A stretch of DNA of 64,000 nt, from assembly GCA_965205335.1 (NCBI GenBank), contig OZ242164.1, forward strand, positions 416,046 through 480,045, in the 5' to 3' direction. The position numbers and the translations under genes were made by a program. The notes beneath the pieces are model-generated. The model saw nothing but the letters and a program-made list of their open reading frames with translations. It made no database searches and was not told the origin of the DNA. Shown piece after piece: positions 6,986 to 56,072 of the stretch; within the stretch, counting starts at the first letter, position 1, and each line of letters starts with the position of its first letter. This stretch comes from Candidatus Woesearchaeota archaeon (GTDB lineage: Archaea; Nanobdellota; Nanobdellia; Woesearchaeales; UBA583).

Positions 6986-7154
6986 CTCTCACACCTCCAT
7001 AACACCTAATAACTTCAGAATTAACACAAAACCAGTGCATTCAAATTATAAATATTAACTCATTGTCTAAGTAGTAACAAAAAGAACATACCTCATTTCT
7101 AAGAATCTCTCTAAAAAGTAATCTTTATAAAGAAAAATATTTAAACAATTTATA

Positions 7155-7655
7155 GTGGAATTCAAAAAAATAAAAAACAAGGTTACAGAGAAATATAGAA
7201 AAATTGGCATAACAAGACATATACGAATTGAGAATTATATTAAATTTCTTGAATCCAACATAAAAATTGCAAAAAAAAAAGACATTGAAACAACTAAAGA
7301 TATTAAAAAAATAATTAAAAAAAAAATTAAAGATATTAAAGTGTTATATGTTCTAATCGCCATTTCTTATCTTGGAATTTACTTTTCATTTATCTCATTT
7401 TTCATTATTGATTTATTCCTCTCACCAGAATTTACTCTTCTTTTCGGACAAAAAATTAGTTTTCTTGGAACTACCTTATTTTTCATACTATTATTCATTT
7501 CAACCAGACTAAGAGATTTATACTATGAAGACTTAAATTTGTTATCATCTCACTTCATTGCAATCTATAATAAATATGCAGATAAAAACAAAGAATCTTT
7601 ATTTAAAGATATAAATAAATACTCTTTATATATTAACTATTTAAAAGAATCCTAA
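7155..7655 (+). CDS. membrane protein, unknown function (GTG start in track)
   Basis: 166 aa with a Lys-rich N-terminus followed by hydrophobic helices. Confidence 0.4.
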   Translation: MEFKKIKNKVTEKYRKIGITRHIRIENYIKFLESNIKIAKKKDIETTKDIKKIIKKKIKDIKVLYVLIAISYLGIYFSFISFFIIDLFLSPEFTLLFGQKISFLGTTLFFILLFISTRLRDLYYEDLNLLSSHFIAIYNKYADKNKESLFKDINKYSLYINYLKES

Positions 7656-7667
7656 ACTTTAAAAAAA

Positions 7668-8129
7668 ATGGAAGTCCACAAAAAAACAATCAAATACTAT
7701 AAAAAAAGCCTAACAGACATTATCCAATACATCCTAAGCGTTATAGTAACTCTTCTCTTTTGCGTTGGATTAATCCCTTCACTATACATTGAACTTAACT
7801 TAGCAAAACCAATTATTATATTACTTATAATCCAATTTATTATCTCCCTAATTAGACTAAGATTTGCCAATATAATCTTAGAAATACTTCTAATCATTTT
7901 TGCATTCATCTCAGTAATTCCATTTTTTGGATACATAACAAGAATATTGGGTTTCATTTTCAGCTTACTTGAAGTTGCGTCATTTAAGAACAGAACACTC
8001 TACAAAAGAATACACATTAAAACATTCATAAGAACACCTTCGCAACACAGAGAAAAAAAACACGAAACAAAACCAAGATTCAACACACCTAAATCAAAAA
8101 TTCACAACGCAAAATTCAAAGAAAAATAA
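7668..8129 (+). CDS. membrane protein, unknown function
   Basis: 153 aa with three hydrophobic helices and a basic tail. Confidence 0.45.
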   Translation: MEVHKKTIKYYKKSLTDIIQYILSVIVTLLFCVGLIPSLYIELNLAKPIIILLIIQFIISLIRLRFANIILEILLIIFAFISVIPFFGYITRILGFIFSLLEVASFKNRTLYKRIHIKTFIRTPSQHREKKHETKPRFNTPKSKIHNAKFKEK

Positions 8130-8141
8130 AACCCATTTTGC

Positions 8142-24968: not shown

Positions 24969-26720
24969 ATGTATAGCAGTGGGATAACTCCCGTTCCTAT
25001 CTTTGATGAGAACTATTGGGTTAAGTCTCAGTTCACAGATAAGGAATATCAGACGTCTTTAAGTTCTTGCACTTGCCCAGATAATAAGACAGGATACGTT
25101 TGCAAACACATTTTATTACTTAAAGGACATTTGAATGATAATAACAAGAAGTGTTTAAAATGTGGGTCTGAGAACGTTGTTAAGAATGGACTAAAGAAAG
25201 GCAAGTATGGAGTTAAACAAACGTATAAGTGTAAGAGTTGTAATAGTAAGTTTGTAGATAATGATATTTCAGAATACAAGGCGAATATGAAAGTAATTAT
25301 TAAGTGTATGGACTTGTATTTTAAAGGTGAATCATACCGAAGTATAGTTAATACTTTAAAGCAGTTTCACAATATTAAAGTAAATCCTGATACAATTATG
25401 AAATGGGTTAAGAAGTACACCATAGTAATTGATACTTATTTAAGTAACTTTAAACCTGTTGTATCTGATACTTGGCATACTGACGAACAGTTTATTAAAG
25501 TTAAAGGTAATCAGAAGTATATATGGAACTGTATGGACAACAAGACTAAGTTTTTACTTGCTTCTAATGTAACTAATCAACGTTCAACAAAAGACGCTCT
25601 AAAACTATTTAAGATGGCTAAGAGTACAGCAGGGAAGAAGGCTCAAACAGTAATCACAGACGGAAGTTTTAGTTATTCAAAGAGTGTTAAAAAGGAGTTT
25701 GCAACTTATAAGAATAAGAAACCACACTATCGTTATGTTAGTTTGAAACAAAAGAATAGTAACAATAACATCATAGAACGTTATCACGGAACACATAAAG
25801 ACCGTACTAAATCAATGCGTGGAATGAAATCTCTTAAAGGAGTTCAAACTTACAATATAGGATTTAAGAATTACTATAACTTTGTCAAATCTCATATGGG
25901 TTTAAATGGATTAACTCCTGCACAAGCAAGCGGTTTAAATGTTCCTGCAAATTGGGAAAATATTTTGAAGAAATATAATCTATCTGAACCCTCTTTGCAA
26001 CAAAAAACAAAATTTCCAATTCCTAACGCTCCTTGGAGTGACGATGATATAAACATATTAATTGAATTATATAACGAAAATGATAGGAATATATTGAAAG
26101 TGAAAGCAATGATAAGAGAGAATTCAGAAATATCACAACAACTCTTTGGAAGAAGCAAGGATGCAGTTTTAGCGAAGTTAAATAGTTTAATAAATGAAAA
26201 ATCGGATTCTTTGCCAAGAGGTTATGAAATTGATTCTAGAGGAGTATCTTCTTACCCAGAAAAAGTTGAAAGATGGTTTTCTGAAATCTACAATTATTCT
26301 CTTGTGCATAATGAACCTAGAATCTTAGATATATTTCCAGTGATTAGTTATTATTATCCATATAAACATCCTGTAACAGAAGATAGTTGTTATATTTTAC
26401 TCGTACCGCTTATGTTTAGAGGATATGATTTAGATAAGTATAAGTCCTTTGAACAGTTTATAATTTCAAGATTGTTTTCCAAATTAATAGATCGTAATTC
26501 AAATGAGTTAATTCCTCCTGATGGGATTTTAGAAATGAAAAAACCTAAAGAATTCCATTTCTTTCCTTCAATTTCAAAAGGTTCATCTTTAGTTGGATTA
26601 TATGTTAGAAAAAAATTTAGTTTAAATGAAAATATGGACACATTTGAATTTCCAGAGGAAATTGAATTTGAAGACGGGAAGAAGAAAATTTTTAATTATT
26701 GGATATTTCATGAGGACTAA
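24969..26720 (+). CDS. SWIM zinc finger + zinc ribbon + IS6-family-like DDE transposase core + Myb/SANT-like segment + about 200 aa unknown C-terminal domain
   Basis: CTCPDNKTGYVCKH (SWIM CxCxnCxH). CLKCGS...CKSCNS ribbon. WHTDEQFIKVKGNQKYIWNCMD, VITDGSFSY and NNIIERYHGTHKDRTKSMRG match the IS6/IS240-type D-D-E spacing. WSDDDINILIELY is Myb-like. Confidence 0.7.
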   Translation: MYSSGITPVPIFDENYWVKSQFTDKEYQTSLSSCTCPDNKTGYVCKHILLLKGHLNDNNKKCLKCGSENVVKNGLKKGKYGVKQTYKCKSCNSKFVDNDISEYKANMKVIIKCMDLYFKGESYRSIVNTLKQFHNIKVNPDTIMKWVKKYTIVIDTYLSNFKPVVSDTWHTDEQFIKVKGNQKYIWNCMDNKTKFLLASNVTNQRSTKDALKLFKMAKSTAGKKAQTVITDGSFSYSKSVKKEFATYKNKKPHYRYVSLKQKNSNNNIIERYHGTHKDRTKSMRGMKSLKGVQTYNIGFKNYYNFVKSHMGLNGLTPAQASGLNVPANWENILKKYNLSEPSLQQKTKFPIPNAPWSDDDINILIELYNENDRNILKVKAMIRENSEISQQLFGRSKDAVLAKLNSLINEKSDSLPRGYEIDSRGVSSYPEKVERWFSEIYNYSLVHNEPRILDIFPVISYYYPYKHPVTEDSCYILLVPLMFRGYDLDKYKSFEQFIISRLFSKLIDRNSNELIPPDGILEMKKPKEFHFFPSISKGSSLVGLYVRKKFSLNENMDTFEFPEEIEFEDGKKKIFNYWIFHED

Positions 26721-28630: not shown

Positions 28631-28758
28631 GGCTCTGTCCGAAAATTCAAGAGAACTTAAAATGTTATATAAATAAAGCAATTTTTGACAAATATTTTTT
28701 TTCTTTGATTGAATATAGTTAGCATAAATTTTGGAAAAAACAATTTTCGGACAGAGCC
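28631..28758 (+). mobile_element. MITE copy 1 (128 bp), 17-bp TIR GGCTCTGTCCGAAAATT, 8-bp TSD TGGTAATT
   Basis: Identical to the copy at 50411-50538. Perfect terminal inverted repeats. TGGTAATT is present on both flanks (28623-28630 and 28759-28766). Confidence 0.9.
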
Positions 28759-36255: not shown

Positions 36256-37800
36256 ATGAAAGTAACAAAACTAATAGCATTGATGGTTATGTCATTTATT
36301 GCACTTTTAGGAACAGCTTTTGCTCTTCCAGTTAGTGTATCTGACTTAACTATTCAAGGAGATAATGGGGACTACATTGCCTTAGTTTCTCTGGAAAATG
36401 CTAATGTGAGCACAGGCAGTCTTGACACATTAACATTTACTGTTGAGGAATTAGGTACAAGCGTAGAAGAAATTGTAAATGTTAATACAGAAACAACAAT
36501 GGTTAAAGCATTTAACCTAAGAGATGTTGTTGAATCATTTAGTTCCCTAAAGAAAGGGGAGACTTATGAATTAACTGTTGAGACATCATCTGGTAGTTCA
36601 GTATCCAAAGCATTCTTATTTGGAAGTGAAAAAGATACAGAAGGCCTAGAGATTGTTCTGGAAAAAGTTGAAGTTAACGGAGAACAAGTAAAAGATGTTG
36701 ACACCCTTCAAGTATTAAATGGAGAAACATTAGAAGTTAGCATGAGATTCTCAGCTCTTGAGAACGTTGAGGACGCAAGACTTAATATATTCATTGAAGG
36801 ATATGAACATGCATCAATCCTTGAATCAACTAAAATTTTCAACTTAGTTGAAGGTAAAACATATGTCAAGACTCTAAGTATCAATTTGCCAACTGATATG
36901 GACAACCAGCAAGATTACAAATTAAGAATCGTTGGTGCTAATGATTTATCAGGTATTACATACAAAGAGTACGTATTATACATAGACACTCAAAGACACA
37001 GAGTTGATGTATTAGACCTAACTATGACTCCTTCATCAGGTGTTGAACCTGGACAAAACATTATTGCTAATGTTAGAATGAAGAACAGAGGTCAAATGGA
37101 ACAAGACTCAGTTAGAGTAAACGTTGCTGTACCAGCTCTTGGTGTAAGTGAATCAAGCTATGTTAGTAACTTAAACTCCAACGAAGTAGCTACATCAGAT
37201 GATATGTTGTTATTCATACCAGAAGATGCAGAACCTAAGACTTACAATGTAGTAGTTACTCTATCATATGATGACGGATACACTGCAACTACTGAAGAAT
37301 TTGTATTAAATGTAGTAGCTCCAAGTATTCCAGAAGAAGGAAGTTTACTTGTAAGTTTCAAGAATAACGTAAACCTAGTTGCAGGAGAAGAAAACACACT
37401 AAAGATCGTTGTTGCAAACCCTACTAGTGAAAGCAAACCAATATCCTTAGCTCATGTTGACAATGTATGGTCAGATGTTGAAGTATCACCTACTCTAGCC
37501 ATGATTCAGGGAGGAAGTCATGCAGAATTTACAGTGACTGTTGTTCCTAAGAAATCAGTTAATGGTGAGAAAGAGATGAACTTTGTTGTTAAGGAAGGAG
37601 CTGAAACTGTTAAAGAATTTGCAGTTAACACATACGTTGAAGGTGAAGATAGGTCGTCTATTAGCTGGCTGACTATCACTTTAATCGTACTATTAGCTTT
37701 AGCTCTTGTTATACTACTGGCTCTGGTAGTTACTATTGCAAGAAGAAAATCAGATGAAGAGGAAGACGAAGAACCTTCATCAGAAGAGGAATACTACTAA
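36256..37800 (+). CDS. cell-surface protein with CARDB-like domain(s), C-terminal TM anchor and acidic tail
   Basis: Signal peptide. EPGQNIIANVRMKNRGQMEQDSVRVNVAV is CARDB-like. C-terminal helix LTITLIVLLALALVILLALVV is followed by RRKSDEEEDEE. Confidence 0.55.
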   Translation: MKVTKLIALMVMSFIALLGTAFALPVSVSDLTIQGDNGDYIALVSLENANVSTGSLDTLTFTVEELGTSVEEIVNVNTETTMVKAFNLRDVVESFSSLKKGETYELTVETSSGSSVSKAFLFGSEKDTEGLEIVLEKVEVNGEQVKDVDTLQVLNGETLEVSMRFSALENVEDARLNIFIEGYEHASILESTKIFNLVEGKTYVKTLSINLPTDMDNQQDYKLRIVGANDLSGITYKEYVLYIDTQRHRVDVLDLTMTPSSGVEPGQNIIANVRMKNRGQMEQDSVRVNVAVPALGVSESSYVSNLNSNEVATSDDMLLFIPEDAEPKTYNVVVTLSYDDGYTATTEEFVLNVVAPSIPEEGSLLVSFKNNVNLVAGEENTLKIVVANPTSESKPISLAHVDNVWSDVEVSPTLAMIQGGSHAEFTVTVVPKKSVNGEKEMNFVVKEGAETVKEFAVNTYVEGEDRSSISWLTITLIVLLALALVILLALVVTIARRKSDEEEDEEPSSEEEYY

Positions 37801-38050: not shown

Positions 38051-38637
38051 ATGAAACTAAATTGGGATAAAACAAAAAAAATCTATTTACATCGCTACTA
38101 TTTATAACACTATATATTCCCTTTTCCTTTGCGATATACTCAAGTTCTTGGTATGAATTTAACTATGAAATATACAGAACATATGAACTTATAGGGAAAG
38201 AAAACACAATTAATGCAACAGAGAACTTAATCTCTTACTTTACACACAAAAACGAGTTAAATCATATGTGGAATAACAAAGAAAAAGCCCATATGAGTGA
38301 AGTCAGAACAATCTTTGACATACTACTCATAACCTTTATCCTCTCTCTTGTAAGCCTTCTCTTTCTAATTAACAAAAATAAAAACACAATAAGAAAATTT
38401 TCAAAAACAAACATTAAAATAATCCTATCACTTCTAATAATTCTACCTTTCTTTACAATATTCTGGCATGCCTTCCATGAAATCCATTTTATAAACAACC
38501 TATAGATAATAAAGTATGATGACATATCTTACTACTTATTTCCTCAGAAATTCCTTAGAAACACAATTCTACTAATAATACTAATAGGAGCATCAATAAA
38601 TCTAACAATAAATTACACTATAAAATTATCTAAATGA
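38051..38637 (+). pseudogene. DUF1461 / TIGR01906-like integral membrane protein gene, disrupted by a frameshift at an A8 tract and an in-frame TAG
   Basis: ATG 38051 reads MKLNWDKTKK, then the frame is lost at A8 (38074-38081). The adjacent frame continues NLFTSLLFITLYIPF...EKAHMSEVRTIFD...FHEIHFINNL, TAG (38503-38505), IIKYDDISYYLFPQKF... to TGA 38635-38637. Family assignment is from recall. Confidence 0.5.
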
Positions 38638-40647
38638 AATACCATACTCATTATGATTCTGAACTTGAGATTTTATTAACTCATATCTCTCAATGAAATT
38701 CTCCTCTGTTAAAGGTACAGCAGATGCAGGAATAACTATATTAATCTTATTTCCGCTATTAATATCTGGCAGCCAATTCTCAATATCAAACATTGATTTC
38801 AAATCTCCATTTGAATCAAAATATGCAACAGTTAAATTATAGTATATTTCATCAAAATCATCATCCAAAAAAGATAATTTACTAAATATCTCTCCGTCAT
38901 TTGGCCATATAGCAAAAGATTCAAATCCCTTTTCCTTATTTTCAATTGTTATATAAACACTGCCATCATCTTGAGAATACAATTTCCTTCCATTCTGATT
39001 CCCTTCATATATAATGACATTCCTCAGTGATATTGTAAATTCTTTTAGAGGTGTTAATTTAATAACCGCAGAAGACGTAATAAATCCATCATCTCTTGGT
39101 GTATCAATTCTAGCAACTCCTCTATGAAAACCCTCCTTCTCTCCTATGACAGTACCTCCCTGACACCAAGGAAATGTAGTACTTAAAACAGGAGATTTAT
39201 ACTCACGAGTAAAACCCTTATGAACAGGTTTTGCTGTAACTCCCATATCACACGATAAATGAATACACTGATATGTAATATTAACACCGCTTAATGGAAT
39301 ATCTAAATTCTTATTTTCTGCATGAATTACTGTATAATACATATAACTCTCATTTGTACAATAATTTTCATTATTAACCGTTAAAGGCTGATTAGCAGGA
39401 TCAAACGCAATAGGTCTTCTTTGCTTAGGAGCATTATCCTCTATCTTAATTCTTAGCGGGAACTGGAAGATATAACCATTTCCTTCAGAATTTCTATCCT
39501 GTATTGACATTATCATATCATAATCTAATGTATACAAATGGTGATATATCTGAACACAAGGAATTGGGATTTTTCCATCAAACACTTTCATTGTAATAGG
39601 TTTTACAACTTGGCCTGAACTTGGCTTAACGCTAAAACTATCCTTCCAGAAAAAAGGGTCTTTTGTAATCTTATCACCTCCTTCATACGAATCCGAATAA
39701 GGTAAAAATGCATTAACCTCATAATTTAAATAAGAATCAGGCAAATCACTAATATCAAAAACATAATGATTTTCAAAATAAGGCCTTAAATCCTTAGTTC
39801 CTAAATCAACATTTAAATTAGCATCATATATATAATCCTTTGGAAAAGTCCCATTAAACTGCAAATACTTAAAATTATGTTTATTCAAATTAATCAAATT
39901 CTCCTTTAACTGTTCATACGTCCAAACTTGCCCCGAACACGAATAAGAAATCCCCTCAGAAGGCATAGAATCCCTATTGCTGTAATCTGATGCTGAATAA
40001 ATCTGATCTAAAACTAACTCCTCCATAAAATTTGTATCCTGTTCATACCCATAAATCTGCGCCGCAAGTTCATACATGTCCCCTAACCTAACATTCTCTA
40101 ACTTAACTGCATAATCTGAAACTGAAATCTCCCTATCTGAATTCTTCTCTGAAAAACTAATCAACAACCTTCCTTCAACAGTGACATCTTCCTTATTAAT
40201 ACTCACATCAACTAAATACGAATCATCAATTTCAATATCAAAAGTTTCTTCAAGAACCCTTAAATCTGATTCAATACATAAAATACTCTCAGATTCAATA
40301 AAACTCCCCAACTCTCTCTCCATAGAAAAAATGGTTGGAATATCATCATCTAAAGAATCCCATGAGGGAATAATCAATCCTCCAATTTCCGTATGCTTTC
40401 TTGGGTCATTTCGTATTGACTCATCAATCTCAATCTGTCCTCCCTGAAAACCCAACAAAAACGTTCCTCTATGAGCAGAATCTAAAATACAATCATCAAC
40501 AATCTGCTTAACCTGATTCTTAGCTCTGAAATCAAAACCCTTAAAAATTGAAAAATCAGAAGTTGCAACCAGAAAAGCAATTACTATAATTAATATTATT
40601 CCTATTATGACAAACATTGTCACCTGAGCATTATTTTTCCTCAACAT
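38626..40647 (-). CDS. large secreted protein with class III (pilin-like) signal peptide
   Basis: 673 aa. N-terminus MLRKNNAQVTMFVIIGIILIIVIAFLV. Last gene of the four-gene operon. Confidence 0.6.
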   Translation of the reverse strand: MLRKNNAQVTMFVIIGIILIIVIAFLVATSDFSIFKGFDFRAKNQVKQIVDDCILDSAHRGTFLLGFQGGQIEIDESIRNDPRKHTEIGGLIIPSWDSLDDDIPTIFSMERELGSFIESESILCIESDLRVLEETFDIEIDDSYLVDVSINKEDVTVEGRLLISFSEKNSDREISVSDYAVKLENVRLGDMYELAAQIYGYEQDTNFMEELVLDQIYSASDYSNRDSMPSEGISYSCSGQVWTYEQLKENLINLNKHNFKYLQFNGTFPKDYIYDANLNVDLGTKDLRPYFENHYVFDISDLPDSYLNYEVNAFLPYSDSYEGGDKITKDPFFWKDSFSVKPSSGQVVKPITMKVFDGKIPIPCVQIYHHLYTLDYDMIMSIQDRNSEGNGYIFQFPLRIKIEDNAPKQRRPIAFDPANQPLTVNNENYCTNESYMYYTVIHAENKNLDIPLSGVNITYQCIHLSCDMGVTAKPVHKGFTREYKSPVLSTTFPWCQGGTVIGEKEGFHRGVARIDTPRDDGFITSSAVIKLTPLKEFTISLRNVIIYEGNQNGRKLYSQDDGSVYITIENKEKGFESFAIWPNDGEIFSKLSFLDDDFDEIYYNLTVAYFDSNGDLKSMFDIENWLPDINSGNKINIVIPASAVPLTEENFIERYELIKSQVQNHNEYGISFR

Positions 40648-41039
40648 TTTTCAAGCGAATTAATCTTATATTTTTCCTCTCTAGAACCACATGCCAAACT
40701 TCCATCAAAAGTCAATATAACAGGGTTTAAATGAACAGAAGATGAACTCGTTTTAATAGACACCCTCCCAAGTGATCTGGAGAACACCTTCTGAACATTT
40801 TCTTTATCCTCACTAAACACAAAATCAATATCAGAATCACCATTATTTTTAATATGAACTTCCATTCCTTCAGGGGTTTTGCAATATTTAGTGATTTCAT
40901 AGTTCAAAAGATTACATCTCTCTAGCTCAGGAACGTATAATCTACCAAGAATTGCATGCAATATCAAAGCAATAATAAACGATGCAATCGCAAGTACAAG
41001 AATATACATTGAAACTCCCTTTTTACATTCAAGTTGCAT
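40641..41039 (-). CDS. small pilin-like protein
   Basis: 132 aa. N-terminus MQLECKKGVSMYILVLAIASFIIALIL. Overlaps the next gene by 7 nt. Confidence 0.55.
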   Translation of the reverse strand: MQLECKKGVSMYILVLAIASFIIALILHAILGRLYVPELERCNLLNYEITKYCKTPEGMEVHIKNNGDSDIDFVFSEDKENVQKVFSRSLGRVSIKTSSSSVHLNPVILTFDGSLACGSREEKYKINSLEKC

Positions 41040-41181
41040 AATGAGGTTCTACAAAAGAATAATATAAAGATTTGTCCTATTCCCAAAGTAAACACAATAA
41101 AAAACTAAAGATTCATTTATGCATCCAATAAACACATTGCATCCATATTATTCCCCAGAGGATTAAAATCCAACACATTAA

Positions 41182-43938
41182 CTATGGGCAATCAGATTCT
41201 GTACAAGATATTTCATTTCCATCGAATGAACAATTTCTAATTTTAATCCTCACACTTGAATCAGTACAAGAATAGCTTCTATCTTCTCCATATTGTATAT
41301 CAACAGACAAATTACCTCTAACATCACAAGCTCCATCTAATCTGCAGAATTTCTCACCCATATAAACTTTCTGTCCTTCCGTAAACTCCTTTCCTCGAAC
41401 ACCAGATGACCATGCACCTAATGTGGGAACTCCATCTGTAAAACAACTTCCACCTACATCTGCACATCCAAACGTCTTATTAATAGGAGTGAAACAACGA
41501 ACTTGCGTCTTATTAAACTCAACCCAATTATCTGAGTCAGAATCTGGATCATAATACTTCCCTGATAAATCCCCAAAAGTTCCAAGTTTTAGGAGACTAG
41601 AATCATTATTATGACGCTCAAGACCTGTCGTTAAAATAAGAGAATCAGGCTTAGGACTGCCACTATAACTACTCCCATTTAATTTAATAACAAAATTAGA
41701 TCTACGAGGAATATGACAAAATTGACACAGACCTGCACTCTGCTCAATATCAAAACCAGCGAATATACCCGGATTAACAAGTCCTGGTATTATCTCTCTA
41801 TCGTATCCAAACCCAATAACATGCTGAGTGGGAAATGGTGATGATTCACTTCCTTGAATACTCGTTAAATTCCCAATAGCAGAAGTGCCATCACAGTCTA
41901 TTCGCACTCTTGCTTTAAGAAGACTTGTGATTTCGCTTCCACGAAGATACTCAAAAATATTTTGAGTGTGGAAATTCCTATCATAACCTAGATCTCTTGG
42001 ACGTTTCTGACTATTAACATAAGGTTCATAACAAAAATAAACCTCTTCATCTAAAGCAAAATCATTATTTCCACTTCCATTCTTAAAATATAGGTTGGGT
42101 TCATTATAGATACTTCTATTTAAAATTTCAGTATTACAACAAGTCATAAACCAAGGATTTTCACTACCATCATTAATAGCATGTGGACCAAGACACCTAA
42201 AAGGATAAACAGTTAAAGTATAATTCTCTTCATTAATAGGAGTTCCATCTGCTCTATTAATCTGAATCTTGATTTCTTGGAGTGAACCATTAGTACTAAT
42301 ATTAAAAATTTTATTGCCAGGAACAACAATAGGTGGATCAACATCATTTACCCAATACTCCACATAATTAAAATCAAGATCCTTTCCAAAACATGAATTA
42401 AGAACTTTTATACCATACTTTCCTGGATACAAAGCATAAGCATAGGCTTCGGTTCTACCACTACTAAAATTTGTAAATATTCTAACTTCATCATTTCTCC
42501 ATTTAAATGAAGCTTCAATAGGAAAACCTGGTTTCTTATAATTATAAAATTTAATACAATCAATAACATCATTATTATTAAAATTCGCTGGAGTTCCTAC
42601 AATAAAATAAACTCTCTGAATAGTATAAGCTTCCCCATCAGTAAGTTGTATATTAAAATCATACTTACCTTCCTTCTCTGCCTTAAAAGTATAATTGCCC
42701 TGTGTTGACAAATTAAAAATATCAGAAGGTTTCAAATCAACATATCTAACATTACCACAATCACCACTATCACCAGAACCATAATAATGAGGAGGACGAC
42801 AATCCATTACCTCAGGATCCATACGGGCAGATATATTAATTGTAGAATTCCACCAAGACCCATTATCTGCAACATAAGCCAAAATGCACTCATCATCAGT
42901 AATATTTGCACACAACACACTCAAATTAAAAGAAGGGGCATGATTTCGATACCCGAACCTATAAACATAAGGATTCCCTAAAATCTTACTCCCATCATCA
43001 AAGAAATAATAAACATACTCCTTATATTCAGGAGAATCATTAATCTTATGAATTTTAAATGTTAGTTCGCTAAGATTATCAATAAAAGCTCTTACTTTAC
43101 TAATATTTCTTAAAATATTATTCAACTGAGTTGAATTACTAAGATTAATACTTCTATTATCCATCTTTTTATTCATTAAATCCTGAGACAAGAACCTTAA
43201 TGCTCCAAATCTTACAGGAACAGATACAACAGATTCTACAAACTCCACTGAATCCCCTCTTGAACCATTTAACACAATAGGATACAAAAACTTCACCTCT
43301 GTTTCATCCTTATTAAAAGAAACATTAACTGTAGCAGTTGAATTCAAATTATATACTGAAACATCATCTAATAAAGTATTGGAAGATGCAATTACCTGCC
43401 CTGGATCTAACTCAACACCAAATTCCCTAACATCAAGAGTTTCATTAATAATCTTATGCTGACAATTCTTTCCAAACTCCTCATAAAAATATCTCTCAAA
43501 ATGTGATTTAACAGTTTCATTATAAATAGACCTGTTCACATTTTCAACTAAATAAGGAACAGTAATTCCAATCCGCAACTCCCTTGCATGAACTAAATTC
43601 CATTTCAAAGAATCCCAGTCCAAACCTATGTTCCCAATAAAATGATAAGGATATGGGACAGGGTATATAAAACTCTTTCTATATATTCCATTAGGAACAC
43701 CATAAATAAACCCTCCTTTAAGTCCTGAAACAATTAATGCTTTCTCTAACTGCTTCTCCATACAAGAATCAACATACCCCTTAATAAACAAAACCCTCTC
43801 TTGAGTATCAACATCAGTCCCTCTGGAAATCTCTTCCTTTTTTGAGTCATTAGACATAAAAACCAAAAAAACCATGGCAGAAATAATAATTACAGAAATT
43901 ATAATAAACATGCTAATCTGTCCCTTAGATGATTTCAT
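41182..43938 (-). CDS. very large secreted protein with class III (pilin-like) signal peptide; sequon-rich with a Cys-rich C-terminus
   Basis: 918 aa. N-terminus MKSSKGQISMFIIISVIIISAMVFLV. Many NxS/T sequons. Confidence 0.6.
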   Translation of the reverse strand: MKSSKGQISMFIIISVIIISAMVFLVFMSNDSKKEEISRGTDVDTQERVLFIKGYVDSCMEKQLEKALIVSGLKGGFIYGVPNGIYRKSFIYPVPYPYHFIGNIGLDWDSLKWNLVHARELRIGITVPYLVENVNRSIYNETVKSHFERYFYEEFGKNCQHKIINETLDVREFGVELDPGQVIASSNTLLDDVSVYNLNSTATVNVSFNKDETEVKFLYPIVLNGSRGDSVEFVESVVSVPVRFGALRFLSQDLMNKKMDNRSINLSNSTQLNNILRNISKVRAFIDNLSELTFKIHKINDSPEYKEYVYYFFDDGSKILGNPYVYRFGYRNHAPSFNLSVLCANITDDECILAYVADNGSWWNSTINISARMDPEVMDCRPPHYYGSGDSGDCGNVRYVDLKPSDIFNLSTQGNYTFKAEKEGKYDFNIQLTDGEAYTIQRVYFIVGTPANFNNNDVIDCIKFYNYKKPGFPIEASFKWRNDEVRIFTNFSSGRTEAYAYALYPGKYGIKVLNSCFGKDLDFNYVEYWVNDVDPPIVVPGNKIFNISTNGSLQEIKIQINRADGTPINEENYTLTVYPFRCLGPHAINDGSENPWFMTCCNTEILNRSIYNEPNLYFKNGSGNNDFALDEEVYFCYEPYVNSQKRPRDLGYDRNFHTQNIFEYLRGSEITSLLKARVRIDCDGTSAIGNLTSIQGSESSPFPTQHVIGFGYDREIIPGLVNPGIFAGFDIEQSAGLCQFCHIPRRSNFVIKLNGSSYSGSPKPDSLILTTGLERHNNDSSLLKLGTFGDLSGKYYDPDSDSDNWVEFNKTQVRCFTPINKTFGCADVGGSCFTDGVPTLGAWSSGVRGKEFTEGQKVYMGEKFCRLDGACDVRGNLSVDIQYGEDRSYSCTDSSVRIKIRNCSFDGNEISCTESDCP

Positions 43939-44486
43939 TTTTTCTCTTTCTTTGATCTTATGAAAAGAGGTTTAAATACCATAATTACAATAACCAAAAT
44001 CATCAGATAAAACAAATAAGTAACATAATTAAACTTCTTACTCTTAGTTATCTCAACCTTGAAATTCTCAATTTCATCCTTTGAAATGGATTTCTTTATT
44101 GTATAATTTATTATGTGTGGGGGCCTTTCAACATGCCATGCAATAAGAGGATCTGATTCCAAAATTGCATAATCTTTCTCGCTCTCTATGAATTCCTCTC
44201 TATTCTCATATGTCAATTCCTCAATAACACTCTTTGGAATTCTATGTGAAACATCAACAGGGTCTTCTGAATAAGGTACATGAATTGAAACTTCAGTTCT
44301 ATCTTCAAAAAACTCAAAATTCGGATCCAAAGAATCATCAGTAAACTCACCTGAAACATCATCCACTGTCCTAGAACTATTACTCACCTTAGTTACAAAA
44401 AACACAGAAACAGAAACCAGAACTATAAGACATAATATCATAATAACTACGACATTCAAAGACGAAGACTGAGAATTTCTTTCCAT
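43935..44486 (-). CDS. membrane protein with pilin-like N-terminus and C-terminal TM helix
   Basis: 183 aa. MERNSQSSSLNVVVIMILCLIVLV (compare RNSQ in the 911-aa protein). C-terminal YLFYLMILVIVIMVF. 4-nt overlap with the next gene. Confidence 0.55.
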   Translation of the reverse strand: MERNSQSSSLNVVVIMILCLIVLVSVSVFFVTKVSNSSRTVDDVSGEFTDDSLDPNFEFFEDRTEVSIHVPYSEDPVDVSHRIPKSVIEELTYENREEFIESEKDYAILESDPLIAWHVERPPHIINYTIKKSISKDEIENFKVEITKSKKFNYVTYLFYLMILVIVIMVFKPLFIRSKKEKK

Positions 44487-44509
44487 TTATTAAACAGACA
44501 CAAAAATCT

Positions 44510-44517
44510 TTTATAAA
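44510..44517 (-). promoter_or_regulatory. TATA box TTTATAAA for the pilin-like operon
   Basis: 23 nt from ATG 44486. 6 nt from the MITE target duplication at 44524-44531. Confidence 0.55.
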
Positions 44518-44531
44518 ATTTTGTCTTCACA

Positions 44532-44658
44532 GGCTCTGTCCGAAAATTCAAGAGAACTTAAAATGTTATATAAATAAAGCAATTTTTGACAAATATTTTT
44601 TTCTTTGATTGAATATAGTTAGCATAAATTTTGGAAAAAACAATTTTCGGACAGAGCC
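44532..44658 (+). mobile_element. MITE copy 2 (127 bp; one T fewer in the internal T-run)
   Basis: Same 17-bp TIRs. TCTTCACA lies on the left flank (44524-44531) and on the right flank at 44661-44668, after two extra C residues. Confidence 0.9.
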
Positions 44659-45245: not shown

Positions 45246-46031
45246 CTAACTTTCATCATCAGGGAAGTGATTTGCATTAATAATTGTCCAAGAACCCAAA
45301 CCTGCTACAAGTGTTTCAAGTTTATCTTCTGATACTTGAAGTTCACCTTGTGAATTAAACCTATCTATTTTATATGAAATTGTAAGTTCTGCTTTCAGAG
45401 ATTCTTTTATCTCTGGCTTTGTTGTATCCGCTATCTCAAACTCCTTCTTTCTAAAAGTATATCCCTGTCCCTGAGTAACCTCTTGATTATAAATAATCTC
45501 TGCAAACTCAATTGAATTGGAATTTATTATTATAAGACTCTTAACTGTCAAATCCTTTATTTCTGCCCTTTTAGCTATCTGTTTAAAATATTCCAGTTCA
45601 ACACCAATCTTATTATCATCTTCTGAGTTAATTATAAAAGGAACATTAATAATGAAATCTCCTTTAAAGTGTACATCCGAATTCTTAAAATCAATGGATT
45701 TTTTCTGAGGCACAACCTTATCGTTCTGTTTTAGAACACATTCATCATTATCAGAACACATCTTCTCTAAATAATCTCCCTTAGTTCCCTCACATCCAAG
45801 AACAGGATGACTCTCTGGCACATCATTTGGACAAGAACAATAATTTTCCCCATCCTCAGGAATACCATTTCCGCATACATTCCTCTCAATTTTCTTTGCA
45901 ACACACTCTCCATCCACTTCCGAATACTTCTCATACGTTGTATCAAGAGTAGAACAATCAACATCTGAACAACCCGCAAGAACAAGAACACCACAAAACA
46001 AAAAAACAAAAAAGATATTCTTATTAATCAT
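45246..46031 (-). CDS. lipobox-bearing secreted Cys-rich protein
   Basis: Start taken at MINKNIFFVFLFCGVLVLAGC (lipobox VLAGC). The track start 46043 is a TTG codon. Confidence 0.5.
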   Translation of the reverse strand: MINKNIFFVFLFCGVLVLAGCSDVDCSTLDTTYEKYSEVDGECVAKKIERNVCGNGIPEDGENYCSCPNDVPESHPVLGCEGTKGDYLEKMCSDNDECVLKQNDKVVPQKKSIDFKNSDVHFKGDFIINVPFIINSEDDNKIGVELEYFKQIAKRAEIKDLTVKSLIIINSNSIEFAEIIYNQEVTQGQGYTFRKKEFEIADTTKPEIKESLKAELTISYKIDRFNSQGELQVSEDKLETLVAGLGSWTIINANHFPDDES

Positions 46032-46032
46032 C

Positions 46033-46614
46033 TTAAATCTCAACTTTAACAGTTACAACCTCTGAGTATTTAATTTCGCCAATTACAACAGTGAGAGTAA
46101 CAAAACAATTTCCTGGACTGGTATCAGATCCTTCTACAGCTCTCACAATAAGAGGATAACTATCTACCTCTCCAGATTCCATATTAGGAAACCCCCCCAA
46201 AACACTAATCACTGCAGGTATACATGTAGCAGGAGTAGCACCCCCATCCGAAACAGAATAGGTAAAATGACCCCCACCACCACTACTTTTAATTTGAGCA
46301 GCAACAAGTTCATTTGCTCCTGAATTCAAAATTTTAAAGAAAAACTTTTCTCCATCAGGATTTCCTATTTTTAGAGTTACCTCTGATGGTACTACTACAA
46401 AGTTTCCAGATTCCTGTTTAACTTTTTTCAACTGCACTTCTTCTTGTTCTGTCAACCGTTTATCAAGATCACCTTTTGCATCTTCTAAAAAACCCGTAAC
46501 AAAGGCAATCACTAGTCCCATAATCACTAAACCAATTATCAACATAATAATCAAATTCAAACTTAACTCCACTGCTCCCTTTTTACTTTTTCTTCCTATC
46601 TGTTCCCTTATCAT
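46033..46614 (-). CDS. pilin-like protein (class III signal peptide)
   Basis: 193 aa. SKKGAVELSLNLIIMLIIGLVIMGLVIAFV N-terminus followed by a beta-rich domain. Confidence 0.6.
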   Translation of the reverse strand: MIREQIGRKSKKGAVELSLNLIIMLIIGLVIMGLVIAFVTGFLEDAKGDLDKRLTEQEEVQLKKVKQESGNFVVVPSEVTLKIGNPDGEKFFFKILNSGANELVAAQIKSSGGGGHFTYSVSDGGATPATCIPAVISVLGGFPNMESGEVDSYPLIVRAVEGSDTSPGNCFVTLTVVIGEIKYSEVVTVKVEI

Positions 46615-46787
46615 ACTCTTCCTTTTATTCTCTTTACTTAAAAAGGTTTTTTATTTTCGAATAATAGTAACAAGTCAAACTATGAAGGTTATTCAACTAT
46701 CTTCCAAATACAAACTAAAAAATATAATATCCTCCACACATATAAATTCAATCTGAACTCTCAAACAGAACTAATAACTAACAAAAC

Positions 46788-47723
46788 TGTGCAGTAAAGT
46801 AGCATATGCTACCATATAAAATTAGAATTTTTCTAATTTTTATGAAAAAAGAACATTTACGCCGTGAATTCATAAAGTTAAAATGTAAGTATTCGTACTC
46901 TAAATGTCAAATACTTTTAGAGAAAAAGTTCAGTAGAACTTTTCATATTTCAACATTAAAGCGTTGGTATAAACGATTTAATGATGGAATTTGGAATTTT
47001 CAAGACAAATCTAAAATCCCTAATAAAGTTTATTACAAAGTAACTCAAGAAGCTGAAAAAGAGATAATTGAGTTACGTAATAAAACTGGTTGGGGAGCAC
47101 TAAAGCTAAAGCAAAAGATTAAATCTGTTCAATTATCTCATACTACAATCAATAAAGTTCTAAAACGTAATGGTTTAACTCGTAAAGAACATAATCGTGG
47201 GCAAAGAGCTAAATACGTTCGTTTCGAACGTAAACACTCAAATTCACTTTGGCATATTGATGACAGTGAATTTGGGGAAAAAGGTAAAATAATTGCAGTC
47301 ATTGATGATGCCACTCGTTATTGTTTAGGTATTTTACACGTTCCAACTGTTACAACACCAATTGTAACACAGTTTCTTGATAATTTAATCAAGAAATTTG
47401 GAAATCCTAATCAAATAATCAGTGACAATGGAGCACCATATGGACTCACAAGTAAGAAGTCTAAGTTTGATAAATGGTGTCAAAGAAGAGGGATTAAGCA
47501 CATTAGAACTAGAGTTAACCGTCCTCAAACAAATGGAAAAGTGGAACGTTTGTTTGGAACAATTGACAGAGAAATTAGGTATTGCAACAATGATTTAGAG
47601 TTATTTAGATATAGATACAATGCTTTTAGGCCTCATGAGAGCTTATTTGGTCAGACTCCTTCTTATGAGTTTGACAACTTTCAGAGAAAGTTGAGGTGGT
47701 GACATATGTCACTGCACTACACA
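46788..47723 (+). mobile_element. IS481-family-like insertion sequence, copy A (chimeric; degenerate right end)
   Basis: Left end TGTGCAGTAAAGTAGCATATGCTACCA. Right end GGTGACATATGTCACTGCACTACACA. A 15-bp duplication AATAACTAACAAAAC flanks it at 46773-46787 and at 47724-47737 plus C 47874, the right copy being split by a MITE. Confidence 0.8.
46806..47702 (+). CDS. IS481-like DDE (rve) transposase
   Basis: 298 aa. LWHIDDSEF...VIDDATRYC, IISDNGAPYG, RPQTNGKVERLFGTI. Confidence 0.85.
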   Translation: MLPYKIRIFLIFMKKEHLRREFIKLKCKYSYSKCQILLEKKFSRTFHISTLKRWYKRFNDGIWNFQDKSKIPNKVYYKVTQEAEKEIIELRNKTGWGALKLKQKIKSVQLSHTTINKVLKRNGLTRKEHNRGQRAKYVRFERKHSNSLWHIDDSEFGEKGKIIAVIDDATRYCLGILHVPTVTTPIVTQFLDNLIKKFGNPNQIISDNGAPYGLTSKKSKFDKWCQRRGIKHIRTRVNRPQTNGKVERLFGTIDREIRYCNNDLELFRYRYNAFRPHESLFGQTPSYEFDNFQRKLRW

Positions 47724-50410: not shown

Positions 50411-50538
50411 GGCTCTGTCCGAAAATTCAAGAGAACTTAAAATGTTATATAAATAAAGCAATTTTTGACAAATATTTTTTTTCTTTGATTGAATATAGTT
50501 AGCATAAATTTTGGAAAAAACAATTTTCGGACAGAGCC
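50411..50538 (+). mobile_element. MITE copy 4 (128 bp), TSD AAACAAAG
   Basis: Identical to copy 1. AAACAAAG at 50403-50410 and 50539-50546. Confidence 0.9.
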
Positions 50539-52740: not shown

Positions 52741-55476
52741 TTAATTACATAATGAGAATAGAAAAGTTGGTTTAGGAAGTGTCCATGAAGGAGTATCATA
52801 ACTAAATGAAATACAATCTAAAAAGCTATTAATGGCATTAACATTCCATCCACTTAAATCACTATTAAATGAATGTGCACCTGAGAACATACTAGTCATA
52901 TCTGTAACACTGCTTACATCCCACCCACTTAAATCACCATTAAATGAATCCGCACTAATGAATATACCACTCATATCTGTAACACTGCTTACATCCCAAG
53001 AGCTTAAATCACCATTAAATGAATCTGCATCCCAGAACATATATGACATATCTGTAACACTGCTTACATTCCAATTACTTAAATTACTATTAAATGAATC
53101 TGCATAATAGAACATACTAGAAATATCTGTAACACTGCTTACATCCCAAGAGCTTAAATCACTATCAAATGAATCTGCACCACTGAACATACTTGACATA
53201 TCTGTAACACTACTTACATTCCAATTACTTAAATCACTATCAAATGAATCTGCATTAAAGAACATCTGTCTCATATCTGTAACACTGCTTACATCCCAAG
53301 AGCTTAAATCACTATCAAATGAATCTGTATCACTGAACATATATACCATATCTGTAACACTGCTTACATCCCAAGAGCTTAAATCACTATTAAATGAATC
53401 TGTATCACTGAACATCTGTCTCATATCTGTAACACTGCTTACATCCCAAGAGCTTAAATCACCATTAAATGAATCTGCATTAAAGAACATACCTTCCAAG
53501 TTTGTGGTACCTGTCAAATTCAACACATCCGCTGCAGATACATCTAAATTAGAACAACTCGAGAAATAATATCCAGTATTACCAACTCTTAAAGTACCCC
53601 AGTTTCTAATATCAATAATCTTTTCCCTATCTGAACCATAAGGACCAAGAGTAAAACCTACTATCTCTCCTGTAATCCTTACCTCATATTCTCCCGGCGT
53701 TGCATATGTATGAGTTACTTCTGGTTGATACCAACTTGTAATTGTATCATTAGTTCCATCACCCCAATCCACAACAAAATTATAAGTTCCAGAATAACGT
53801 AAAGGTAATTTAATCTGATTACTATTTGAACTCCCAGAACTTAATTCAGTTGTTCTCCAGACTGAAATAAATGCATCTTCTACAATCCTCTCACTACACA
53901 CAGCATTAATGCCACCATATAACCCATTACAATTCCATACAATATGAGTAGAATTATCTGATGTATTTAAGAAAGTACCCACATCACATGTATCAACATC
54001 TGAGTCACAAACACCATTTACTGGCTTTCGAATACTACAATAAGACATATTACCTCCAAATAATCCAAGACAATTCCACAAATAATAATTAGAATTATCT
54101 AAAACATCTTGGAATGTCCCATTTATGCACATATCAACACCCATCAAATCACAAATTCCATTTACAGGTTTTGGAATATTACATGATGAATTACTTCCCC
54201 CATATAACCCAAGACAATCCCATAAATAATGAGTGGAATTATCCGATACATTCAAGAAAGTTCCATTTATACACATATTAATACTAATCAAATCACAAAT
54301 TCCATTTACAGGTTTTGGAATATTACATGAAGAATTACTTCCGCCATTCAATCCAACACAATCCCATAAATAATGAGTGGAATTATCCGATACATTTAAG
54401 AAAGTTCCATTTGTACACACTTCAGCTCTTACCAAATCACAAACACCATTTATTGGAGTAGGCGGTAATAGTTTACTGCATGATGAATTACTTCCACCAT
54501 GTAAGCCAAGACAATCCCACAAATAATGAGTAGAATTATCTGAAATATCATAAGATGTACCATTTATACACATATTAATACTAATCAAATCACAAATTCC
54601 ATTTACTGGTTTGACTTTGCTACATGAAGAACTACTTCCGCCATTCAATCCAACACAATCCCATAAATAATGAGTGGAATTGTCAGATACATTCAAGAAA
54701 GTTCCATTTGTACACATATCAACTCTTATCAAATCACAAACACCATTTACCGGAGTAAATATTATTGGACTATTACACATAGCATTACTACCACCATGTA
54801 ATCCAAGGCAATCCCATAAATAATGAGTGGAATTATCAGATACATTTAAGAAAGTTCCATTTACACACATATAAGTCCTAATCAAATCACAAACCCCACT
54901 CACAGGAGGCTCTGAAAGATTTATATGATCTACTCTAAGCCTTATAGCCCCTTTACTCTGTATTCCAATTTCTGTTTGAGATTCTCTTAACTCAATCGTA
55001 ATCCTGCCTGAAATAATATCTCCTTCAAACAACTCCCAAACATACTCAGAAGAACCATTCACATTACAATCAAAAATAATTCTTCCAATATCATACTTAT
55101 CAAACGTAACAAAACTACTATTATGCGAATCAGTATCATAATTATCTGCCCAAACACCAATACACTTCTTCCCAGTATCATCTACTATCACAGATTCATT
55201 TGGCACTAACTCAACACTGTATCTATCATAATATGTAAAATAAATATGAACCTTATCCTGAAAAGAAGAAGGTTCTGAAGTTCCTGAATAAGCATTTGAA
55301 GCCTCATAATTTCCTCTAACAATATTTTTGAAATCTAATTTCTCCGGAAGTATAAAATTAAAATCCACATAACTAAAAATCATAACTGATACAATTAAAA
55401 CTATAATAAACATCCAACCATATGTTGTTAAATACTCAATTGAAATCTGAGAATTTCTACCTCTTTCCTTCATCAT
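52741..55476 (-). CDS. 911-aa surface protein: class III signal peptide, eight 4-Cys repeats, PKD-like WGDG module, about eleven 26-residue DUF285-type repeats
   Basis: N-terminus RGRNSQISIEYLTTYGWMFIIVLIV. Repeats PVNG(V/I)CDL...C.NGTFLNVSDNSTHYLWDC.GL.GGSNSSC. Also VVDWGDGTND. Repeats FxxADSFN(G/S)DLSSWDVSSVTDMxxMF. Confidence 0.7.
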   Translation of the reverse strand: MMKERGRNSQISIEYLTTYGWMFIIVLIVSVMIFSYVDFNFILPEKLDFKNIVRGNYEASNAYSGTSEPSSFQDKVHIYFTYYDRYSVELVPNESVIVDDTGKKCIGVWADNYDTDSHNSSFVTFDKYDIGRIIFDCNVNGSSEYVWELFEGDIISGRITIELRESQTEIGIQSKGAIRLRVDHINLSEPPVSGVCDLIRTYMCVNGTFLNVSDNSTHYLWDCLGLHGGSNAMCNSPIIFTPVNGVCDLIRVDMCTNGTFLNVSDNSTHYLWDCVGLNGGSSSSCSKVKPVNGICDLISINMCINGTSYDISDNSTHYLWDCLGLHGGSNSSCSKLLPPTPINGVCDLVRAEVCTNGTFLNVSDNSTHYLWDCVGLNGGSNSSCNIPKPVNGICDLISINMCINGTFLNVSDNSTHYLWDCLGLYGGSNSSCNIPKPVNGICDLMGVDMCINGTFQDVLDNSNYYLWNCLGLFGGNMSYCSIRKPVNGVCDSDVDTCDVGTFLNTSDNSTHIVWNCNGLYGGINAVCSERIVEDAFISVWRTTELSSGSSNSNQIKLPLRYSGTYNFVVDWGDGTNDTITSWYQPEVTHTYATPGEYEVRITGEIVGFTLGPYGSDREKIIDIRNWGTLRVGNTGYYFSSCSNLDVSAADVLNLTGTTNLEGMFFNADSFNGDLSSWDVSSVTDMRQMFSDTDSFNSDLSSWDVSSVTDMVYMFSDTDSFDSDLSSWDVSSVTDMRQMFFNADSFDSDLSNWNVSSVTDMSSMFSGADSFDSDLSSWDVSSVTDISSMFYYADSFNSNLSNWNVSSVTDMSYMFWDADSFNGDLSSWDVSSVTDMSGIFISADSFNGDLSGWDVSSVTDMTSMFSGAHSFNSDLSGWNVNAINSFLDCISFSYDTPSWTLPKPTFLFSLCN
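52830..53505 (-). repeat. tandem 78-bp (26-codon) coding repeats, about 11 units
   Basis: Recurring catatctgtaacactgcttacatcccaagagcttaaatcac... at 78-nt spacing on the plus strand. Confidence 0.85.
53893..54910 (-). repeat. tandem coding repeats of about 135-141 bp, 8 units (4-Cys module)
   Basis: Recurring ...acaatcccataaataatgagtggaattatc... blocks. The protein repeat was read from the translation. Confidence 0.8.
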
Positions 55477-56014: not shown

Positions 56015-56072
56015 ATCCTCTTCTTTAAAAATTTTTTGTTGTCATTAACGGGAGAATCCTGCCTCAGAGAAG

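Follow-up and report, generated by a model that had tools for sequence, protein, structure and literature searches.

A stretch of 64,000 nucleotides (nt) from the genome of a Candidatus Woesearchaeota archaeon (contig OZ242164.1 of assembly GCA_965205335.1, forward-strand positions 416,046 to 480,045; hereafter the window) carries a cluster of four minus-strand genes encoding proteins of 183, 918, 132 and 673 amino acids (aa). With a probability of roughly 0.5, we read this locus as a conserved pilin-like surface module of DPANN (Diapherotrites, Parvarchaeota, Aenigmarchaeota, Nanoarchaeota, Nanohaloarchaeota) archaea that consists of two coupled gene pairs. Sequence comparison indicates that the motif at the putative cut site of its large proteins is conserved far beyond the needs of a plain membrane anchor, and the same gene order recurs in at least nine Woesearchaeota and Nanoarchaeota genomes, so that the arrangement is not due to chance. 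It is still an open question how DPANN cells bind to their hosts and trade material with them, and annotation is lacking for most of their surface proteins. The locus offers a concrete, lineage-wide target in the form of a coupled small and large protein pair found in all sampled Woesearchaeota and Nanoarchaeota relatives.

Two gene pairs and their conservation

The surrounding DNA is archaeal in gene content, with PolD DP2, RFC, an archaeal-type DNA ligase, the alpha and beta subunits of PheRS, V/A-ATPase subunit I and enolase at a GC content of about 32%, and the nearest named relatives of the cluster proteins belong to metagenome-assembled genomes labelled Woesearchaeota, Nanoarchaeota or Nanoarchaeales, so that the source can reasonably be described as DPANN-type. 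A first-pass annotation of this DNA, made from the sequence alone, had described four minus-strand open reading frames (ORFs) with particular N-termini and two short overlaps, all of which are present. Gene 1 (183 aa; 43935-44486) and the 918-aa gene (41182-43938) overlap by 4 nt, stop to start, as do the 132-aa gene (40641-41039) and the 673-aa gene (38626-40647) by 7 nt. The same annotation saw all four genes as tightly packed within a single operon, which does not hold: a 142-nt spacer (41040-41181) separates the 918- and 132-aa genes. Within it are a T-run (41099-41104) and, at 41060-41069, a TATA-like CTTTATATTA that precedes the ATG of the 132-aa gene by about 26 nt; the spacer is likely to comprise a terminator and an internal promoter. 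The promoter-proximal region of gene 1 (44487-44531) likewise holds a TATA-like TTTTATAAAA at 44509-44518, about 27 nt before the ATG, as its putative archaeal promoter. In every related locus the 918/132 junction is a gap of 58-204 nt or is occupied by an inserted gene, and the other two junctions overlap. Because this gap or insert recurs throughout, the cluster is likely to form two transcription units, each a translationally coupled pair (183+918 and 132+673). The locus turned up in no RNA run.

Synteny was assessed by BLAST of the window proteins against the ORFs of 15 fetched loci, to which that of a sister genome (L016) was added later; the related loci numbered 20 overall. Gene order proved to be conserved in relatives, with genes for about 260, 900, 132 and 673 aa in the same succession in the nine genomes, in most of them downstream of a divergent NUDIX gene. 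Only the 132+673 pair remains in L001/L004 (a complete Woesearchaeota chromosome), L007, L017 and L018, where it stands among genes for helicases, CDC48, ribosomal proteins and ABCE1. A 132-type gene lies directly upstream of the 673-type gene in all 15 related loci that have a close 673 homologue and a readable upstream region (15/15). In the more distant L019 and L020, cluster members sit within larger sets of big unannotated proteins, including in L020 a gene-1-like protein with two anchors and a 918-like paralogue. The 132+673 pair is core in all relatives examined, with the gene-1+918 pair an accessory in one clade. As a separate observation, one of the nine syntenic loci (L013) has a gene for a 913-aa protein (6807-9548, plus strand) with a DUF7483 domain (E 5e-90) inserted exactly between the two gene pairs. 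Its N-terminus (KKKG↓IGPVIASSLLIVVAVV) looks pilin-like by eye, but Pfam reports only DUF7483/SPRY, and we did not count this unconfirmed resemblance as evidence.

All four cluster genes evolve faster than their housekeeping neighbour. Median pairwise identity across the nine genomes is 66% for the NUDIX protein, 43% for the 673-aa protein, 29% for gene 1, 27% for the 918-aa protein and 25% for the 132-aa protein. Between the window and its sister genome, the closest pair, the corresponding values are 93, 81, 82, 63 and 85%, which makes the 918-aa protein the fastest-diverging member at 63% against 81-93% for its neighbours.

N-terminal signals and protein architecture

The 673 and 918 families share an invariant N-terminal junction, (K/R)-(G/A/S)↓Q-(I/V)-(S/T)-x-F, with about 22 hydrophobic residues behind it (the arrow marks the putative cut, from which positions are counted). 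In the window, the leaders read MKSSKG↓QISMFIIISVII... in the 918-aa protein, a putative class III signal, and MLRKNNA↓QVTMFVIIGII... in the 673-aa protein. Across the 673 family, +1 is Gln in 49/49 sequences and +5 is Phe in 50/50; the -1 residue is small in 47/49 (Gly in 25, Ala in 14, Ser in 8), Lys or Arg occupies -2 in 36/49 and Ser or Thr +3 in 47/49, +2 is V/I/L and +4 is I/M/L/V. This register is kept across leaders of 4 to 28 aa (median 7). The 918 family has Gln at +1 and Phe at +5 in 13/13 members each. The 132-aa protein begins MQLECKKG↓VSMYILVLAIASF..., continues with about 24 hydrophobic residues, and belongs to a family (six usable homologues) whose junction, KK(A/G)↓(I/L/V)-x-(S/T)-(Y/H), has Ile, Leu or Val and no Gln at +1. 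Four conserved Cys mark its globular part, a beta domain of some 90 aa.

Within the window, residues -2/-1 are K-G in the 918-aa protein, K-G in the 132-aa protein, N-A in the 673-aa protein and N-S in gene 1. The hydrophobic stretch of the first three runs for 22-24 residues with a mean Kyte-Doolittle value of 2.6-3.0, and AlphaFold2 (AF2) places a helix at 6-29/33 in the 673-aa protein. These three N-termini show the class III layout of a short basic leader, a small residue at -1, an uninterrupted helix of about 20 residues from +1 and no Sec c-region. The 918- and 132-aa proteins fit a FlaFind-like regular expression, and among the 118 window ORFs of >=60 aa only the 918-, 132- and 673-aa genes match either that expression or the QxSxF pattern. 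The earlier assignment of class III signals to all four products is supported for three of them, by the layout and, in the 673 and 918 families, by the Gln+1/Phe+5 conservation, and falls for gene 1. We infer that the N-termini of the 918-, 132- and 673-aa proteins are cleaved class III (prepilin-type) signals.

Gene 1 is the exception. Its product is a bitopic membrane protein with a hydrophobic N-terminal segment (MERNSQSSSLNVVVIMIL...) a conserved C-terminal domain (IPKSVIEELT...DPLIAW...INYTI) and a C-terminal transmembrane (TM) helix that ends in a basic tail. In eight homologues, 254-276 aa long, there is instead a Sec-type signal, a Cys-containing beta domain and a C-terminal membrane anchor, and only the C-terminal domain and that anchor are shared with it. 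The tripartite Sec (class I) pattern (MKK...hydrophobic...A/FA) occurs solely in these gene 1 homologues from elsewhere; the 918-, 673- and 132-aa proteins lack it, and gene 1 of the window has a divergent N-terminal anchor. The short 183-aa form, beginning RNSQSSS..., is limited to the window and the sister genome (82% identity). With homologues that carry ordinary Sec signals and an N-terminus that is a lineage-limited variant, the class III signal once ascribed to gene 1 has to be given up, and the protein is not, judging by its family at large, a pilin-signal protein.

The sister genome also contains an extra 176-aa gene (L016 5916-6446, plus strand), placed between gene 1 and its 918 homologue. 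It is a chimera in which 38 residues from the start of a 918-type protein (MRSSKGQISIFIIIS...) are fused to 141 C-terminal residues from the gene-1 family. Because of this chimera, the pilin-like N-terminus appears to be a portable module exchanged by recombination in this lineage, and the N-terminus of gene 1 in the window (S↓QSSSL) may, more speculatively, be a decayed copy of it.

The 673 family comprises 51 homologues of 630-740 aa at 34-82% identity. Its length is constant, and its alignment has 45 invariant columns, among them 8 Cys, a D375-Y-D377...D384 motif and the polar residues E231, Q215, S218 and R399; H369/H370 are near-invariant. An AF2 model built on the 51-sequence alignment (predicted local distance difference test score, pLDDT, 83.5) has a TM helix at 6-29, an alpha/beta N-domain (about 38-420) and several C-terminal beta-sandwich domains (about 430-650); the N-domain modelled alone reached pLDDT 76 and a predicted template-modelling score (pTM) of 0.72. 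Foldseek matched the full-length model in the PDB only to CnaB/Ig-like sandwiches of Gram-positive sortase pilins, at template-modelling scores (TM-scores) of 0.13-0.30. Such CnaB/Ig-like sandwiches occur in adhesins and Gram-positive pilins. The N-domain had no credible match in the PDB (best E 0.014, TM-score about 0.1) and nothing credible in BFVD.

The 918-aa protein is organized as signal, N-terminal module (N-module) in common with the 673-aa protein, and a variable ectodomain rich in Cys and in N-x-S/T sequons. It carries 33 sequons against 9.5 expected from composition (background 0.77 per 100 aa) and 24 Cys, and its homologues are few and divergent. The 673-aa protein, with 4 sequons and 8 Cys, is at background level, so that the description of both large proteins as sequon- and Cys-rich is correct for the 918-aa protein alone. 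In a sequencing run from the source metagenome (X2), dense clusters of single-nucleotide polymorphisms, a 32-nt alternative segment and a 3-nt insertion fall inside the 918-aa gene, with positions 41942-42069, 42100, 42768 and 43819-43843 among the variants listed.

Profile comparison indicates that the 918- and 673-aa proteins are paralogues with a common N-module: hhalign assigns homology to the two families across their first 220-336 residues, with a probability of 98.7 and E 3.5e-16. A 134-position profile of this module recruited 5,981 of 1.84 billion cluster representatives at E<=1e-3, of which 1,246 reach E<=1e-10. Their lengths span 160-1,000 aa, with peaks at about 620-700 and 930-1,000 aa and many shorter members. 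Ten sampled members have no Pfam domain and are named only 'hypothetical protein, Woesearchaeota', and the N-termini of sampled distant members read KKRGQVTIFIIIG.... By these searches, the N-module proteins are a very large uncharacterised superfamily.

Pfam and NCBIfam gave no match above threshold for the four cluster proteins, for 13 members of the 918 family, for the 10 distant N-module members or for the cluster neighbours at distant loci, and neither the 673 nor the 918 family profile matched any PDB sequence at E<=10. The earlier statement that no catalytic domain is recognisable in these proteins is borne out by sequence (Pfam, NCBIfam, PDB) and by fold; neither pointed to an enzyme, which the first-pass annotation had named as an outcome that would refute its reading. 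A DUF2341 or PilY1 domain was likewise without a Pfam match in the 918-aa, 673-aa and 13 918-family proteins, and the AF2 model contains no propeller.

A proposed pilin-like surface module and its alternatives

In the favoured reading, a peptidase encoded elsewhere in the genome would cut the three class III signals, which would be of the +1-Gln (EppA-type) kind. The mature proteins would then stay in the membrane, or would join one another and a small pilin through their N-terminal helices, in the manner of minor or 'modular' pilins, to sit on a pseudopilus or a short type-IV-like fibre. Here the 673-aa protein would act as a conserved scaffold with the 132-aa protein as its obligate small partner, and the glycosylated, variable 918-aa paralogue would be the outward-facing adhesin. 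Gene 1, with its Sec or N-terminal anchor and its C-terminal anchor, would supply a membrane-bound accessory and no pilin. The extracellular hallmarks of the set, namely the invariant Cys of the 673-aa protein, the sequons and Cys of the 918-aa protein and the CnaB/Ig-like sandwiches, count in favour of a surface module. The more specific proposals of the first-pass annotation, a minor-pilin plus tip-adhesin module of a filament and a host-attachment apparatus, are hypotheses, and unproven.

A close precedent is found in Methanococcus maripaludis, whose EppA substrates carry leaders of 5-13 aa with Gly as the last residue, Gln at +1 and Glu at +5 (PMC3875500). These EppA/DUF361 proteins (EpdA-C, MMP1685, MMP0600/0601/0709) likewise combine a basic leader, a small residue, Gln+1, Ser/Thr+3 and a helix, and, like the cluster, include large and small proteins encoded at scattered sites apart from the ATPase/platform locus (PMC3875500). 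The 673 and 918 families have the Gln+1 of this subclass. They differ in having Phe rather than Glu at +5, in receiving no score from PF04021 and in their unrelated globular parts, and cleavage here is only predicted. Their likeness to EppA substrates is thus one of working principle, and the proteins do not formally belong to PF04021; a distant N-module member scored 8.3 bits against a cut-off of 23.7.

Other systems share the general plan. Modular type IV pilins such as Streptococcus sanguinis PilB (PMC8179133) also join a pilin-type N-terminus to a large ectodomain thought to be adhesive, but the cluster has no detectable pilin fold and no linked pilus operon, and it belongs to an archaeal lineage. 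The bacterial minor-pilin/tip complexes FimU-PilVWX-PilY1 and GspHIJK of the type II secretion system (T2SS) and the archaeal DUF2341/PilY-like adhesins of systems 1/4A (PMC4858521) are likewise encoded in small operons that mix small and very large pilin-signal proteins; such sets, like the cluster, come without a major pilin or machinery, and their large subunit is the proposed tip adhesin. Here, in contrast, there is no homology to PilY1, GspK or DUF2341 by sequence or fold, the large proteins themselves carry the prepilin-type signal, and the core pair adjoins no type IV filament (TFF) locus in 20 genomes.

Several results weigh against the pilin-like reading. None of the four proteins, nor their N-terminal peptides alone, was scored by PF04021 (Class_IIIsignal), Pilin_N or the TIGR/NCBIfam pilin models at E<=10. 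The Glu+5 of the EppA-type/DUF361 subclass (QxSxExxxL) is replaced by Phe throughout, and the 673-aa protein of the window has Asn at -2 instead of Lys or Arg. Cleavage of the three signals is a prediction. Structure comparison gave the 673 N-domain no type IV pilin fold, with pilin, pseudopilin, GspK and PilY1 folds all absent among its Foldseek matches. The placement of the 132+673 pair among housekeeping genes and the fair conservation of the 673-aa protein (median 43%) suit a core envelope component better than a tip adhesin; the pair behaves as a vertically inherited core component, unlike a typical fast-evolving tip adhesin. Finally, no pilus ATPase, platform or peptidase gene lies within 10 kb of the cluster in any of the 20 related loci.

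Within the window itself, the reported lack of PilB/FlaI, PilC/FlaJ and PibD/FlaK was confirmed by a family scan of 49 proteins, which cover 64 kb of the 1.2-Mb contig and include no T2SSE/FlaI, T2SSF/FlaJ or peptidase A24. Neither the window nor the 20 related loci show linkage to a TFF locus (FlaI/PilB with FlaJ/TadC/PilC), and when every ORF of the related loci was screened for a Walker-A pattern, the matches were all unrelated P-loop proteins. Pilin genes distant from their machinery are common in archaea (PMC3875500, PMC4858521), and because they are so often unlinked, the absence of machinery from the window argues neither for nor against a pilin-like function. Woesearchaeota genomes are reported to encode homologues of flaI, flaJ and flaK (PMC5994134), and DPANN archaea to possess TFF systems 1 and 4A (bioRxiv 10.64898/2026.04.22.720090).

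A serious alternative is a filament-independent complex of the envelope, which we regard as somewhat unlikely. The helices would then be anchors, either uncut or cut and retained, and the 132+673 pair, joined in one clade by the gene-1+918 pair, would make up a fixed housekeeping complex at the surface or in the pseudo-periplasm, possibly organizing or anchoring the surface layer (S-layer) by analogy with ArlF/ArlG, or maintaining the cell envelope. ArlF and ArlG (FlaF/FlaG), which tie the archaellum to the S-layer, are small beta-sandwich proteins with an N-terminal helix that lie between membrane and S-layer, and an S-layer-type gene often neighbours the cluster, within 1-4 kb in the window and five related loci. 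However, the sole match to these proteins, of gene 1 to NF052591 (ArlG), is insignificant (E 0.065), and no archaellum genes are nearby. Such a complex would agree with a 132+673 pair that is found among helicases, CDC48, ribosomal proteins, ABCE1 and RNA polymerase and never beside pilus machinery in 20 loci, with the constant length and 45 invariant columns of the 673-aa protein, with an N-domain that has no pilin fold and with the two anchors of gene 1. What a plain anchor does not explain is the invariant Gln+1 and Phe+5, with a small -1 and a basic -2 in fixed register behind leaders of 4-28 aa. The same layout moreover occurs independently in the 132 family, and the motif is close to that of experimentally cleaved EppA substrates (PMC3875500).

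The signals might also be real and the proteins still no filament subunits, as with the sugar-binding proteins of Sulfolobus; that the cluster encodes such surface binders for nutrient capture is, in our judgement, a long shot. Class III signals on large non-pilin proteins are documented, with thousands predicted in archaea (bioRxiv 10.64898/2026.04.22.720090), DPANN cells rely on scavenging, and the Sulfolobus bindosome proteins share large non-pilin ectodomains, a class III-type N-terminus and genes remote from the assembly machinery. The cluster proteins, however, resemble no substrate-binding family or fold, and neither the window nor the core synteny places an ABC transporter gene beside them. 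A longer shot still is that the 673/918 N-domain is a novel membrane-tethered hydrolase or other catalyst. Its conserved polar residues (near-invariant H369/H370, with D375, D377, D384, E231, Q215, S218 and R399) could form a metal or active site, but the D-x-D...D pattern fits a structural Ca2+ site equally well, profile searches of the PDB were empty at E<=10, Pfam and NCBIfam had no match, and no fold match over the N-domain exceeded a probability of 0.66 or a TM-score of 0.15. Least credible of all is that ordinary Sec (class I) signals merely direct secretion, or an S-layer-like fate. Gene 1 homologues do have Sec-type signals; in the 918-, 673- and 132-aa proteins, by contrast, a hydrophobic stretch of 22-24 residues directly follows the basic leader without an A-x-A-type c-region, and the conserved motif stands at its front, not its rear.

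The pilin-like module would consist of new families of a known kind, surface proteins with class III signals; their signal variant is distinct, and their N-domain has no detectable structural relative. A bolder version, which we consider unlikely, is that the 132+673 pair and its paralogue extension represent an undescribed DPANN-wide apparatus marked by this signal variant and by the N-domain of no known fold, in which giant 'modular pilins' with a G/A/S↓QxSxF signal are displayed to hosts by type-IV-filament machinery and the N-module is a common carrier of adhesins. Peptidase-dependent cleavage at (G/A/S)↓Q, if true, would re-annotate thousands of 'hypothetical proteins' (about 6,000 clusters without a Pfam domain), and the cleaved N-module proteins would provide markers with which to image the DPANN-host interface. 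If uncleaved, the cluster proteins would still be a conserved envelope complex worth characterising.

Neighbouring genes and mobile elements

Two genes upstream of the cluster, just past the NUDIX gene and on the same strand, lies a 193-aa pilin-sized protein gene (46033-46614, minus strand) with the leader ...RKSKKG↓AVELSLNLIIMLIIG..., which overlaps by 11 nt the gene for a 265-aa Cys-rich protein with a lipobox-like LAGC (45246-46043, minus strand). Elsewhere this pair stands beside the cluster only in the sister genome, where the 193-aa counterpart is 42% identical. The 193-aa protein matches no Pfam or NCBIfam family; it is a possible filament subunit and major-pilin candidate whose membership of the cluster is unproven.

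On the other side, 0.8 kb downstream of the cluster, a gene at 36256-37800 (plus strand) encodes a predicted S-layer-type protein of 514 aa (NF033506, E 1.3e-18; NPCBM_assoc) with a C-terminal TM segment and an acidic tail. Its counterparts near the cluster in the five related loci, which include those of L013 and the sister genome, are 53-89% identical, and it is a possible functional partner. Farther upstream, a 911-aa protein (52741-55476, minus strand) combines a textbook DUF361-type N-terminus (RNS↓QISIEYL) with DUF285/PARCEL repeats (E 1e-91), a PKD-like segment, 30 sequons and 33 Cys. Its gene contains 75-nt and 144-nt tandem repeats and lies downstream of an insertion sequence (IS) copy; the sequence makes it a candidate for a second class III surface adhesin in the window.

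A miniature inverted-repeat transposable element (MITE), which the first-pass annotation had placed directly upstream of the cluster, is indeed found there. The family is 128 nt long with 17-nt terminal inverted repeats (GGCTCTGTCCGAAAATT), and three near-identical copies occur in the window (28631-28758, 44532-44658 and 50411-50538). The second of these (127 nt) sits 45 nt upstream of the gene 1 ATG, with the promoter region of gene 1 on one side and the divergent NUDIX gene on the other, at a site where the sister genome has only a 90-nt spacer. Run X2 yielded a contig with the joint 44523->44661, an empty site, which indicates that the insertion is recent and, within the source population, polymorphic. 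Contig depth is 3.5-13x in the flanks and rises to 88-144x on the element itself, which implies many copies. We considered the MITE as the cause of the shortening of gene 1 and rejected it, as the MITE-free sister genome also has the 183-aa form.

Other mobile elements and damaged genes are scattered through the window. Two IS copies (46778-47702 and 56063-56975, plus strand) encode an rve/HTH_32 transposase and share a 300-nt start that is 99% identical; one of them lies directly upstream of the 193-aa pilin-like gene. An IS240-type DDE transposase with a SWIM finger is encoded at 24969-26720. Convergent with the 673-aa gene, a Lit-family (PF07314) membrane-protein gene (about 38051-38631, plus strand) is a pseudogene in which the reading frame shifts after roughly ten codons and an in-frame stop occurs; it is 81% identical to an intact 196-aa copy in the sister genome. 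The ORF for the ATP-dependent DNA ligase (8142-9587, plus strand) ends in the adenylation domain (Pfam positions 2-167 of 204) and has no OB domain, and that for PolD DP2 (10028-11425, plus strand) is limited to the N-terminal part plus central-domain positions 1-155 (of 372); each of the two looks truncated or split.

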